DNA from: Escherichia coli
GTDB lineage: Bacteria > Pseudomonadota > Gammaproteobacteria > Enterobacterales > Enterobacteriaceae
Assembly (NCBI RefSeq): GCF_003334405.1
Contig: NZ_QOWM01000024.1
Direction: 5' to 3' (one strand)
DNA length: 41,323 nt
Shown: in pieces, positions 24,591 to 37,303 of the stretch
Position numbering within the stretch: position 1 is the first letter of the stretch
Layout: each line of letters opens with the position of its first letter
Position numbers and translations under genes: made by a program
Notes under the pieces: generated by a model
Database searches by the model: none
What the model saw: the letters and a program-made list of their open reading frames with translations, nothing else
Told to the model about the DNA's origin: nothing

Positions 24591-25010
24591 TTATCTCTCA
24601 AGTTCGTTCAGTGCATTTTTGACACGCTCTCTTAAACCGGCTTTCTCTTCGCTTTCTTCCACAGTATTTTCTTCGTCTTCAGAAGAAGAGGGGGCATTCT
24701 CAACCGCGACGCCTGGGTCATCTTCCTCCTCGACGGATTCGACGACGGGGAGTGGCTGTTTTTTGAAGAAATAGTGTTGTGTTGATTGTTTAAAAGCGGG
24801 CGTTTCAGCCTCTACAGTGACTTCGGCTTTTACTATCCAAAGCACCCATAGCTGCCTGGCATACCCACCAACCAGCACCATTCCTGCAAACCACAGGCAA
24901 ATCAGTAATAAACAAATTACATATATTATGGTGCTGTGTTTTTGTCGGGAGAAGATACCAGGGTGACCTGTTTCTTTCTGCTCACGCGCGGCGATATAGA
25001 ATTCAAACAT
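24591..25010 (-). CDS. gspB: type II secretion accessory protein GspB (ExeB-like)
   Basis: 139 aa with single TM segment and acidic Ser/Glu-rich C-terminal region; immediately downstream of gspA. Confidence 0.8.
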   Translation of the reverse strand: MFEFYIAAREQKETGHPGIFSRQKHSTIIYVICLLLICLWFAGMVLVGGYARQLWVLWIVKAEVTVEAETPAFKQSTQHYFFKKQPLPVVESVEEEDDPGVAVENAPSSSEDEENTVEESEEKAGLRERVKNALNELER

Positions 25011-25011
25011 G

Positions 25012-26481
25012 TCATTTCCCCTTCACTGTTGTTTCCGGGGAAATATTTGCTTCATCCCGATATAAGTAGGCACTCTCCCCTGCCACCTGCCAGAGATGTA
25101 CTAACGTTGAAAAGCCAACAACACCGTCAGTTTTCAAGTGGTGGCTTTTTTGAAATTGCTTTATTTTTTCTACCAACAAGGGACGCCACTCCGCCGAAGG
25201 TTCTGTCGAAATATGCAATGCGCGGTTTAACATCGTTTCCAGCCAGAGAATCTCTTCCTCGCTGCTATCACGCGTAATGGTACTCTCCCCTTCCGGCGAC
25301 ATTTTCCACAACAGAAGATAATCACCCGTCCATACCGACTCAAACCATTTATGTGTCAGCGTCCACGTTTGCTGACCTACGAGGACATCAACGCTAGCCT
25401 CACCGACGCGAACGACCACAACAGGCAATTTTTTGTCCCCGACTTTAAGCGATGCGATCCAGGGCAAATTCTGATCTACCAATGTTTGTAAAGAAGCATT
25501 CCCACTTTTACATGCCAGCCCCGCTCTTACTGCCTGATCGCACCAGGCCGAATCAGCTGGGACCTCGTACCCCCATACGCCGTATAACACGCTTAGCGCC
25601 TCACTATCGCGCATCACCACATGAGCAATATCCTTAGTCATATCTTGTTTAACTACTGGCGTTACGGGTATCAGCCACGCAGGAACGGGTAACGTAGCTG
25701 TAAAAGAGGACAGCAGTAGCCAACCACAGGTAAGAGCGATAATGGTTCCACTCATCACCACGGCAAGCTGCATTTTCCGGGGGCGGTTATCACCCAATAT
25801 GCGGTAAATCATTCGCCATTGTTTTGCTGTGAAAACGCTGGTCTGCTCGGCTTGCTGTAATAAGCGAATTGTTTCGCCGGCAAGCGCCAGCTTTCTGCGA
25901 TCGCCCCGACATAATAAAGCTATCCGTTTCAGAACTCTGGCGGTTAAAAGGAGATCGGGTTGGTCAATATTCTGACCTTCAAGGATGCTTGCCTTAAGTT
26001 CGTGCTCCGTCAGACGTCCTATCGAGACAAGTTCAATGCCCTGTTTTTTAAAATCACGTTCGACTTTTCGATCGGGTCTGCCGATCAGCAAAAATTGACC
26101 GTCAGGAATAAGAGATATTGCGCGTTGGAGATCATCAAGTATGCGGCGGTGATTCAGGTGAGCATTTTCAATAATAATAAGAGGGCAGCGACTATCAGTT
26201 CGATGAAGCGCATGCAGTAATTGCCCCGCCATCTCATCTCGCGTCCAGGCGCTGTCACGGCAGCCCTGTTCAGCCGCGTTATCGTCGGTAACGATCCATG
26301 CGGCCTTACCTTGCCAGGAAACAACGAGGCTTAAAGTAATCACACGGCGATGTTTATCTTTTTGCAGTTGCTGCGCCAGCCAGGTTTTTCCACTTCCAGC
26401 CTCACCCAACAAATAGCATAGACGCCAGGTTTGACGTTTCTCACACAACCAGGAAAGAATAACTTCTCTTCTCGTAGACAT
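25012..26481 (-). CDS. gspA: type II secretion accessory ATPase-like protein GspA (ExeA-like)
   Basis: 489 aa, Walker A GEAGSGKT near the N-terminus, TM segment, periplasmic C-terminal domain; divergent from gspC. Confidence 0.85.
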   Translation of the reverse strand: MSTRREVILSWLCEKRQTWRLCYLLGEAGSGKTWLAQQLQKDKHRRVITLSLVVSWQGKAAWIVTDDNAAEQGCRDSAWTRDEMAGQLLHALHRTDSRCPLIIIENAHLNHRRILDDLQRAISLIPDGQFLLIGRPDRKVERDFKKQGIELVSIGRLTEHELKASILEGQNIDQPDLLLTARVLKRIALLCRGDRRKLALAGETIRLLQQAEQTSVFTAKQWRMIYRILGDNRPRKMQLAVVMSGTIIALTCGWLLLSSFTATLPVPAWLIPVTPVVKQDMTKDIAHVVMRDSEALSVLYGVWGYEVPADSAWCDQAVRAGLACKSGNASLQTLVDQNLPWIASLKVGDKKLPVVVVRVGEASVDVLVGQQTWTLTHKWFESVWTGDYLLLWKMSPEGESTITRDSSEEEILWLETMLNRALHISTEPSAEWRPLLVEKIKQFQKSHHLKTDGVVGFSTLVHLWQVAGESAYLYRDEANISPETTVKGK

Positions 26482-35004: not shown

Positions 35005-36168
35005 ATGCCTGAATCGTTGATGGTCATACGTTCTTCCTCGACGCTGCGTAAGCATTGGGAATGGATGACGTTCTCCGCAGATAGCGTATCTTCGGTACAT
35101 ACGCTCACGGACGATCTTCCGCTGGAGTCGCTGGCCGATCAGCCCGGTGCCGGAAATGTTCATCTTTTGATCCCACCAGAGGGCCTTTTATATCGTTCCC
35201 TCACGCTGCCCAACGCCAAATACAAACTCACCGCACAAACATTACAATGGCTGGCAGAGGAGACGTTACCCGACAACACCCAGGACTGGCACTGGACGGT
35301 TGTCGATAAACAAAACGAAAGTGTCGAGGTGATAGGCATTCAGTCGGAGAAACTCAGTCGCTATCTTGAGCGTTTACATACTGCCGGACTCAACGTGACG
35401 CGGGTTTTGCCAGATGGCTGCTATCTTCCCTGGGAAGTAGATAGCTGGACTCTGGTTAACCAGCAAACAAGCTGGCTCATTCGCAGTGCCGCACATGCCT
35501 TCAACGAACTGGATGAACACTGGTTACAGCATCTTGCTGCCCAGTTTCCGCCTGAGAATATGCTTTGTTATGGTGTAGTACCTCACGGCGTTGCAGCGGC
35601 CAATCCACTTATCCAGCATCCTGAAATACCATCACTGAGTTTGTATTCTGCCGATATTGCATTCCAGCGCTATGACATGCTGCATGGTATTTTTCGTAAA
35701 CAGAAAACTGTAAGCAAATCGGGAAAATGGCTCGCCCGCCTGGCAGTAAGCTGTCTCGTTCTCGCCATTCTTTCTTTTGTTGGCAGCCGGAGCATCGCGC
35801 TCTGGCATACGCTTAAGATTGAAGATCAACTTCAGCAACAACAGCAAGAAACCTGGCAACGTTATTTCCCGCAGATCAAACGCACCCACAATTTTCGTTT
35901 TTACTTTAAGCAGCAACTCGCTCAGCAATATCCTGAAGCTGTGCCGTTGCTCTATCATTTACAAACACTTCTGCTGGAACACCCTGAACTGCAGTTAATG
36001 GAGGCGAACTATAGCCAGAAGCAAAAGTCGCTGACCTTAAAAATGAGTGCTAAGAGTGAAGCTAATATCGATCGTTTCTGTGAGTTAACACAGTCCTGGC
36101 TTCCGATGGAAAAAACAGAAAAAGATCCGGTCAGTGGTGTATGGACAGTAAGGAACTCAGGGAAATGA
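35005..36168 (+). CDS. gspL: type II secretion inner-membrane protein L
   Basis: 387 aa from ATG 35005 (ORF track begins one codon earlier at GTG 35002); cytoplasmic domain, one TM, periplasmic domain. Confidence 0.85.
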   Translation: MPESLMVIRSSSTLRKHWEWMTFSADSVSSVHTLTDDLPLESLADQPGAGNVHLLIPPEGLLYRSLTLPNAKYKLTAQTLQWLAEETLPDNTQDWHWTVVDKQNESVEVIGIQSEKLSRYLERLHTAGLNVTRVLPDGCYLPWEVDSWTLVNQQTSWLIRSAAHAFNELDEHWLQHLAAQFPPENMLCYGVVPHGVAAANPLIQHPEIPSLSLYSADIAFQRYDMLHGIFRKQKTVSKSGKWLARLAVSCLVLAILSFVGSRSIALWHTLKIEDQLQQQQQETWQRYFPQIKRTHNFRFYFKQQLAQQYPEAVPLLYHLQTLLLEHPELQLMEANYSQKQKSLTLKMSAKSEANIDRFCELTQSWLPMEKTEKDPVSGVWTVRNSGK

Positions 36169-36626
36169 TTAAATCATGGTGGGCAGAAAAATCCACATCG
36201 GAAAAACAGATCGTTGCGGCACTGGCGGTTCTCTCGCTCGGCGTTTTTTGTTGGCTTGGGGTGATAAAACCGATAGATACCTACATTGCAGAGCATCAGT
36301 CCCACGCGCAAAAAATTAAGAAGGACATCAAATGGATGCAGGATCAAGCGAGCACCCATGGTTTACTCGGTCATCCTGCGCTTACGCAGCCCATCAAAAA
36401 TATCCTTCTCGAGGAAGCAAAACGTGAGAATTTGGCTATCACGCTGGAAAACGGCCCGGACAATACTCTGACAATTCATCCTGTCACAGCTCCCCTCGAA
36501 AACGTCTCCCGCTGGCTCACTACGGCACAGGTAACATACGGTATTGTTATTGAAGACCTTCAGTTTACTCTTGCCGGAAACGAAGAGATCACCCTCAGGC
36601 ATTTGTCCTTCAGGGAGCAACAATAA
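36165..36626 (+). CDS. gspM: type II secretion inner-membrane protein M
   Basis: Translation MIKSWWAEKSTSEKQIVAALAVLSLGVFCWLGVI...; ATG 36165 in ATGA overlap with gspL stop gives 153 aa. Confidence 0.82.
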   Translation: MIKSWWAEKSTSEKQIVAALAVLSLGVFCWLGVIKPIDTYIAEHQSHAQKIKKDIKWMQDQASTHGLLGHPALTQPIKNILLEEAKRENLAITLENGPDNTLTIHPVTAPLENVSRWLTTAQVTYGIVIEDLQFTLAGNEEITLRHLSFREQQ

Positions 36627-37303
36627 TGACAATGCTACTGCCGCTCTTCATTCTGGTTGGTTTTATTGCAGGTTATTTTGTTAATGCCATCGCCTATCAC
36701 CTCTCGCCGTTGGAGGATAAAACGGCGTTAACGTTTCGCCAGGTATTGGTTCATTTCAGGCAAAAAAAATATGCCTGGCATGATACAGTGCCCCTGATAC
36801 TTTGTGTTGCTGCTGCTATCGCCTGCGCCCTGGCACCTTTCACGCCCATCGTGACTGGCGCACTCTTTCTCTATTTCTGTTTCGTACTCACGCTCAGTGT
36901 TATTGATTTTCGCACTCAGCTCCTGCCCGACAAACTCACCTTACCGCTGCTCTGGCTTGGCTTGGTATTTAATGCGCAGTATGGATTAATTGATTTACAT
37001 GATGCGGTTTACGGCGCGGTAGCGGGCTATGGGGTGCTGTGGTGTGTTTACTGGGGCGTCTGGTTAGTTTGTCACAAAGAGGGATTGGGCTACGGTGATT
37101 TCAAGCTACTGGCCGCTGCAGGCGCATGGTGTGGCTGGCAAACGTTGCCAATGATACTGCTGATTGCCTCGCTGGGTGGCATTGGTTACGCCATTGTTTC
37201 ACAACTTCTGCAACGCCGGACTATAACCACTATCGCATTCGGCCCGTGGCTTGCGCTCGGCAGCATGATAAACCTGGGGTATCTGGCCTGGATCTCTTAT
37301 TAA
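36626..37303 (+). CDS. gspO: prepilin peptidase / N-methyltransferase
   Basis: 225 aa polytopic membrane protein of the PilD/GspO family (GYGDFKLLAAAGAWCGW); 1-nt overlap with gspM. Confidence 0.88.
   Translation: MTMLLPLFILVGFIAGYFVNAIAYHLSPLEDKTALTFRQVLVHFRQKKYAWHDTVPLILCVAAAIACALAPFTPIVTGALFLYFCFVLTLSVIDFRTQLLPDKLTLPLLWLGLVFNAQYGLIDLHDAVYGAVAGYGVLWCVYWGVWLVCHKEGLGYGDFKLLAAAGAWCGWQTLPMILLIASLGGIGYAIVSQLLQRRTITTIAFGPWLALGSMINLGYLAWISY

Follow-up and report, generated by a model that had tools for sequence, protein, structure and literature searches.

The gspBA/gspC-O divergon of Escherichia coli K-12 specifies a type II secretion system (T2SS) of the alpha subtype, which is silent in laboratory culture. 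Is this the silence of a decaying relic, of operons that lack working promoters, or of an intact machine held under active repression? We examined the locus in a 41,323-nucleotide stretch of an E. coli genome (contig NZ_QOWM01000024.1; hereafter the window), where it occupies positions 24591-37303, from the gspB stop to the gspO stop. We are highly confident that this is the chromosomal T2SS-alpha of K-12-type E. coli: a complete Klebsiella-type secreton encoded by two divergent operons, with an H-NS-silenced spacer between them and ChiA exported on derepression. Under this mechanism, gspAB and gspCDEFGHIJKLMO would both be transcribed from a shared, very AT-rich spacer of 179 bp, which is dense in overlapping promoter-like sites and can bind RNA polymerase. 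During laboratory growth H-NS would coat the spacer and silence transcription. SlyA-type anti-silencers or loss of H-NS would relieve the repression, and the derepressed secreton would then export the chitinase/lysozyme ChiA, whose gene is linked to gsp and silenced along with it. Our own computations cover which genes are present and whether they are intact, their motifs, AT-richness, the density of promoter-like sites, purifying selection and the co-distribution of chiA. For the occupancy by H-NS, derepression, the binding of SlyA and the secretion of ChiA we rely on the literature.

The gene set is complete

The window corresponds to approximately 3,428,918-3,470,240 of MG1655, with 5 mismatches in 20,241 aligned bases, the gsp interval included. 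Positions 24400-37500 (13.1 kb) are 100% identical to several complete E. coli genomes, for example FORC_081. The coordinates of the 14 open reading frames (ORFs) coincide with RefSeq gspB, gspA and gspC-O in both FORC_081 and MG1655, and in MG1655 the RefSeq product name of each begins "cryptic type II secretion system". Beyond one end of the interval lies rpsJ, a gene of the S10 operon, and beyond the other lie bfr, bfd, chiA and tufA. The genes are as follows.

24591-25010, minus strand: gspB, intact, 139 aa; accessory inner-membrane protein of the GspAB complex; NCBIfam NF007250 at 287 bits (cut-off 180); RefSeq b3322.
25012-26481, minus strand: gspA, intact, 489 aa; AAA+ ATPase that carries a peptidoglycan-binding domain and assists secretin assembly; Pfam AAA_22, GspA_C39-like and PG_binding_1; Walker A GEAGSGKT at residue 26; RefSeq gspA.
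26661-27476, plus strand: gspC, intact, 271 aa, GTG start; inner-membrane clamp protein; TIGR01713 at 294 bits.
27460-29412, plus strand: gspD, intact, 650 aa; secretin GspD-alpha, Klebsiella type, pilotin-independent; TIGR02517 at 648 bits (cut-off 351) over residues 30-604.
29422-30903, plus strand: gspE, intact, 493 aa; secretion ATPase; TIGR02533 at 657 bits (cut-off 630); Walker A GPTGSGKS at residue 249.
30900-32096, plus strand: gspF, inner-membrane platform protein; TIGR02120 at 549 bits.
32106-32543, plus strand: gspG, major pseudopilin; leader ...QRG/FTLLE; TIGR01710 at 184 bits.
32551-33060, plus strand: gspH, minor pseudopilin; GFTLLE leader; TIGR01708 above cut-off.
33057-33434, plus strand: gspI, minor pseudopilin; GMTLLE leader; TIGR01707 above cut-off.
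33427-34014, plus strand: gspJ, minor pseudopilin; GFTLLE leader; TIGR01711 at 63.2 bits, marginally under the cut-off of 64.85, with the TIGR02532 prepilin leader domain.
34007-34990, plus strand: gspK, minor pseudopilin; leader GVALLIVL (G/VALLIV), without Glu+5; NF037980 above cut-off.
35005-36168, plus strand: gspL, inner-membrane platform protein; TIGR01709 at 148 bits, above cut-off.
36165-36626, plus strand: gspM, inner-membrane platform protein; Pfam T2SSM at 131 bits (E = 6e-38).
36626-37303, plus strand: gspO, prepilin peptidase, short form, 225 aa; Pfam Peptidase_A24 (E = 3.6e-30) over residues 82-190; RefSeq gspO.

The original prediction, made from the letters of the window, had held that these frames are uninterrupted and carry conserved motifs. 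Both points are borne out. All 14 ORFs are in frame, with zero internal stops and proper stop codons, and all have family matches. The NCBIfam equivalog models for GspB, C, D, E, F, G, H, I, K and L score above their curated cut-offs. At E <= 1e-5, NCBIfam gave no match for GspA, GspM, GspO or ChiA, and Pfam resolved all four. The motifs claimed, namely Walker A in GspA and GspE, G-F/M-TLLE leaders in GspG-J and a secretin model match, are present as listed. A T2SS core is thus encoded: secretin, Walker A ATPase, the GspC/F/L/M platform, GspG-K pseudopilins and the GspO peptidase. The locus is matched at >=99% identity by thousands of independent assemblies, which makes it unlikely that resequencing would uncover frameshifts.

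The genes from gspC to gspO are spaced at -17 to +14 nt, with an overlap between the stop of gspM and the start of gspO. Such spacing cannot accommodate gspN, a pilotin gene or any other extra gene, as had been predicted for gspN. Its absence is no bar to function, because this gene set has given ChiA secretion in published work. With GspA and GspB encoded, a pilotin gene absent and no unassigned coding space, the cluster fits the GspAB-assisted T2SS-alpha subtype described in PMC10329019. In this subtype GspD-alpha is a Klebsiella-type secretin, and a proposed GspA/GspB peptidoglycan-remodelling route to the outer membrane replaces the pilotin (PMC6532946, PMC10329019). This accounts for the place of gspAB in the divergon, and the absence of gspS leaves the set complete. 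T2SSs are described as comprising 12-16 proteins, and GspAB and GspS occur in some of them and not in others (PMC6532946), and both cryo-EM and in situ structures exist for K-12 GspD-alpha (PMC6532946, PMC10329019).

The N-terminal 81 residues of GspO gave no significant Pfam match. An in-frame upstream extension is impossible, because the start codon of the ORF is already the first to follow a stop. Longer prepilin peptidases have an N-terminal Cys-rich cytoplasmic loop that is linked to N-methylation.

The genes are under purifying selection

One could read the cluster as a decaying relic, silent through disuse, whose ORFs are intact only for now. In favour of this, the cluster is cryptic under laboratory conditions and missing from about 42% of complete E. 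coli genomes, and in some E. coli strains it carries insertion sequences (ISEc52, IS100, IS1) or has suffered large internal losses. The system is indeed being inactivated in individual lineages, despite overall purifying selection. This selection is clear in the pooled comparison of the 14 genes with genome L004 (approximately 97% identical). The synonymous and non-synonymous differences per site are pS 0.088 and pN 0.011, respectively, so that pN/pS is 0.12, with zero stops. Gene by gene, dN/dS against L004 ranges from 0.02 to 0.34. The gsp genes are under purifying selection and are not decaying.

The spacer between gspA and gspC is even more conserved than the synonymous sites. It is identical in the window and L004, though the gsp genes of the two differ at approximately 9% of synonymous sites. 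In this comparison mismatches stand 35 bp apart on average, and over 13 kb only one run free of them is longer than the 212 bp at 26462-26673. Among six E. coli lineages (the window and five others, four of which form one clade, so that independent lineages are few), one spacer site varies (26534) and 13.4 are expected (Poisson P approximately 2e-5). The expectation is the composition-adjusted third-codon-position rate of gspA and gspC. The computation ran from gspA onward and left out gspB, which shows a 3-nt length difference in L008.

Published in vivo work is in accord with use of the system. Transcripts of gsp and chiA are present in uropathogenic E. coli sampled directly from patients. 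The secretin is required for surface display of DraD (PMC2649431). Mastitis isolates, and strains that are fitter in mouse mammary glands, are enriched for gsp and chiA, and deletion of chiA lowers adherence (PMC11390585). Taken with the selection on the genes and the conservation of the spacer, this makes a relic very improbable, and we retain the reading of an intact, actively silenced secreton.

The spacer is rich in promoter-like sites

The following features lie between the two operons.

26482-26660, no strand: divergent gspA/gspC control region, 179 bp, 22.9% GC; AT-rich, H-NS-silenced, a "promoter island".
26515-26543, minus strand: predicted sigma-70 promoter of gspAB, TTAATA-17-TATGAT; 9/12 in the consensus scan, hexamers listed for gspAB in PMC3946193.
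26578-26606, plus strand: predicted sigma-70 promoter of gspC-O, TTGATT-17-TACTAT; 8/12 to consensus, hexamers listed for gspC in PMC3946193.
26555-26566, minus strand: proposed SlyA site TTATATTAGTAA, with the sequence from PMC5797941, where it lies 79 bp upstream of gspA; it sits between two back-to-back -35 hexamers.

The extreme AT-richness that had been noted for this region is confirmed. The lowest-GC 179-bp windows of the 41 kb fall here, and the spacer has the AT-rich control region of H-NS-silenced loci (22.9% vs 49.5% GC for the window). Below 33% GC there are only two further stretches, one upstream of chiA at 40868-41256 and one in the bfd-chiA spacer region at 37976-38279.

Hexamer pairs at >=8/12 were counted and compared across the window; this is our own relaxed count, not PlatProm. 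Between 26401 and 26950 there are 10-12 of them per 300 bp, where the window as a whole averages 1.5, an approximately 7-fold excess. Only the chiA upstream region exceeds this, with the window maximum of 12-16 per 300 bp. At the stricter threshold of >=9/12, the consensus scan found 4 sites in 26300-26900, where shuffles gave 2.3 +/- 1.7; taken alone, this difference is not significant.

Binding data for the same DNA point the same way. Shimada et al. found that the RpoD holoenzyme alone selects the spacer in genomic SELEX (systematic evolution of ligands by exponential enrichment), and the spacer carries the HNS mark in their work (PMC3946193). It also lies under RpoS and RpoF SELEX peaks (PMC5493296). 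Panyukov and Ozoline list it as island 3453428_392, gspA(-)/gspC(+), one of 78 promoter islands (PMC3661553). As a class, these islands have abnormally dense potential start points over >=300 bp and bind both RNA polymerase and H-NS; they form open complexes and abortive transcripts with nearly no full-length RNA (PMC3661553).

The two operons differ in their start regions. The GTG of gspC is preceded by bases (...TTATTAGAACATACATC, window 26640-26663) in which no obvious Shine-Dalgarno sequence can be read. AGGAAG stands a few bases 5' of the gspA ATG. Weak translation initiation at gspC could be one more reason why the long operon is poorly expressed.

That the operons are silent mainly for want of functional promoters or translation signals, and not through active repression, is likewise a very improbable account: it can draw on the 8-9/12 scores and on the start of gspC, and it has against it the selection of the spacer by holoenzyme alone, the open complexes and abortive transcripts of promoter islands as a class, the promoter-like density, and the rise in expression on SlyA over-production and, reportedly, in hns mutants. 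The silence is best explained by repression of a promoter-dense region accessible to RNA polymerase. The original prediction, that the set appears to lack a dedicated strong promoter context, therefore survives only in part. It is right in so far as the best matches are modest; it does not describe a spacer that is promoter-dense, a SELEX target and a promoter island.

Published evidence that H-NS silences the spacer and SlyA binds it

Silencing rather than constitutive use had been proposed, and published data on H-NS, SlyA, chromatin immunoprecipitation (ChIP) and in vivo protein occupancy (IPOD-HR) for this same locus support it. Later papers, in passages that cite Francetic et al. 2000, describe gsp as unexpressed in standard culture and derepressed without H-NS, whereupon ChiA is secreted (PMC2649431, PMC5797941, PMC11390585, PMC3032704). 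H-NS ChIP is marked "K, O" for gspCDEF (PMC5797941). In IPOD-HR data an occupancy peak stays at the gspA-gspC spacer after the RNA polymerase signal is subtracted, in a neighbourhood rich in ribosomal-protein genes.

SlyA, an H-NS antagonist, binds the 179-bp gspA-gspC fragment in an electrophoretic mobility shift assay with an apparent Kd of approximately 50-100 nM, and its over-production raises gspCDEF 2.4-fold (PMC5797941). The primers of that assay match the spacer precisely at its two ends, TC59 at 26482-26504 and TC60 at 26635-26660. The proposed SlyA site overlaps the best H-NS-motif-like 10-mer, TAAATAAATT (26564-26573, 8/10 match). Judged by position, the site would suit simultaneous anti-silencing of both operons, and SlyA bound between the -35 boxes is a plausible anti-silencing mechanism.

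Several points weigh against silencing by H-NS as we describe it. None of the predicted sigma-70 promoters is near-consensus, the best reaching only 8-9/12. Matches to the H-NS 10-mer tCGATAAATT at >=7/10 number 5 in the spacer, vs 5.3 +/- 2.3 in composition-matched shuffles, so there is no enrichment and no discrete nucleation site can therefore be named. Motif enrichment was dropped as evidence of silencing, since matches are no commoner than base composition predicts. In the Francetic study of 2000, hns mutants reportedly secreted ChiA efficiently only when a moderate-copy plasmid supplied the gsp genes. If so, derepression of the chromosomal copy alone may be insufficient. Finally, silencing by H-NS and secretion of ChiA rest, in the sources used here, on later papers that cite Francetic and Pugsley 1996 and Francetic et al. 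2000.

chiA is the linked substrate gene

38243-40936, minus strand: chiA, endochitinase/lysozyme, known substrate of the gsp T2SS; Pfam Glyco_hydro_18 and CBM_5_12; RefSeq chiA; outside 24591-37303.

Of 5426 complete E. coli genomes, 3113 carry chiA at >=80% cover, nearly as many as the 3119 with gsp. The chiA-tufA spacer (40868-41256) is the other strongly AT-rich stretch, which fits co-silencing of chiA with gsp. The listed RpoS SELEX peaks include one at chiA/tufA (PMC5493296).

The locus exists as two haplotypes

At least 80% of the gsp cluster is found in those 3119 of 5426 genomes (approximately 58%). HUSEC2011 (L003) lacks the cluster. Its identity to the window ends at 24537 and returns at 41176; between these points it has approximately 1.5 kb (L003:6139-7670), vs 16.6 kb in the window (24538-41175). 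The short segment holds a gene for a 155-aa prepilin-peptidase-like protein with 41% amino acid identity to the C-terminal part of GspO. It also holds its own bfr/bfd, which are 79% identical to those of the window at the DNA level (Bfr protein, 90%). At >=80% coverage the short haplotype is present in 2252 genomes, and 3156 others match only its bfr/bfd, at 60-80% identity. The genes gspBA, gspC-O, bfr, bfd and chiA behave as a single 16.6-kb haplotype. The locus is thus dimorphic, with a 16.6-kb and a 1.5-kb haplotype.

The absence of gsp from strain W has been described as a "gspO-rpsJ deletion" (PMC3032704). This account does not fit, because the bfr/bfd of the short haplotype are divergent. 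In a pan-genome association study bfr and bfd counted as accessory genes, with frequencies exactly those of gsp and chiA (PMC11390585); the scoring arises because the two-haplotype structure includes bfr/bfd. The two deeply divergent haplotypes at rpsJ-tufA matter for such studies, since bfr and bfd "hitch-hike" with gsp and chiA.

A possible, though rather doubtful, extension of our reading is that gsp is a regulated module kept as an old polymorphism and not merely "cryptic". The spacer, being more conserved than synonymous sites, would then encode specific regulatory logic beyond generic AT-rich H-NS binding and answer a natural, probably host-associated signal. The absence of the T2SS would be an allelic replacement (58:42, with bfr/bfd divergence at the inter-species level) and not a simple deletion.

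Other features of the window

The sole Rfam match at gathering level in the window is the alpha-operon ribosome-binding site RF00140 (13522-13633, minus strand, 102.7 bits) upstream of rpsM, which is expected in a ribosomal-protein region and unrelated to gsp. At the gathering threshold, Rfam gave no match in or near the gsp region. Scans for terminators at the gspO/bfr and gspB/rpsJ junctions turned up nothing beyond weak matches at the level of chance.

Meaning of the silent locus

Silencing of gsp is already known. The experiments in hns backgrounds and on ChiA secretion were published in 1996-2000, and the SlyA, SELEX, ChIP and IPOD-HR data have followed since. The locus is a textbook case of a complete machine kept silent by H-NS, and finding it again adds nothing new; it does show that a silenced locus was recognisable from sequence alone. 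The inducing condition, which had been posed as the open question, is answered in part, and for K-12 short of a mechanism, by host-associated settings and SlyA-type anti-silencers. Host-associated conditions are probably the natural inducing context. Modest interest remains in the natural signal that opens the spacer in K-12-type strains, the strong conservation of the spacer, the two haplotypes and the short GspO.

Comparison with known systems

The out-of-genus matches listed contain no Escherichia representative and serve as out-group context only. Among them, the closest relatives of GspG are 71-79% identical, and Klebsiella oxytoca is one of these (L062, 71%). At least 20 other species have the divergent gspA|gspC layout; in these the mean GC of the spacers is 41%, against 55% for the loci. 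Enterobacillus tribolii and two Chimaeribacter species (L011, L012, L014) share the synteny of the window, rpsJ-gsp(B)A | gspC-O-bfr, and their spacers are likewise low in GC (27-30%, in loci of approximately 51%). An Enterobacter metagenome-assembled genome and Trabulsiella odontotermitis (L010, L013) share the gspO-bfr-chiA linkage. The gsp proteins of these relatives are 18-79% identical to those of the window. Alignment of the E. coli spacer with those of Enterobacillus and Chimaeribacter gave no conserved blocks, only AT-richness. Thus AT-richness is a family trait, and the spacer sequence is lineage-specific. The rpsJ-gsp-bfr placement and the gspO-bfr-chiA linkage are common to distant Enterobacterales; the long arrangement is therefore old and not an insertion specific to E. 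coli.

The second T2SS of E. coli, T2SS-beta (yghJ/sslE-pppA-yghG-gspC-M at pheV), is encoded at another locus and is absent from the window. It has a Vibrio-type secretin that needs the pilotin GspS-beta/YghG, its substrates are the heat-labile enterotoxin LT and SslE, and it is truncated in K-12. Yang and colleagues are said to have reported in 2007 that it is H-NS-repressed and temperature-regulated in enterotoxigenic E. coli.

The Pul system of K. oxytoca and the Exe system of Aeromonas share with the window the core GspC-M and O and a Klebsiella-type secretin. In the ExeAB/GspAB assembly route, as in the window, GspAB homologues bind peptidoglycan instead of a Vibrio-type pilotin. The window cluster differs from Pul/Exe in having no gspN and no gspS pilotin gene, and its GspO has no detectable Pfam match N-terminal to Peptidase_A24. 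The substrate is ChiA in the window system and pullulanase or aerolysin in Pul/Exe.

The closest counterpart is gspAB/gspC-O of MG1655 (b3322-b3335, the "cryptic general secretory pathway operon"), which has the same gene order, neighbours and 179-bp spacer. Two of the five single-nucleotide differences are non-synonymous, and the proteins accordingly differ at two residues (MG1655 residue first): G425D in GspD (window 28733) and D16G in GspO (window 36672).

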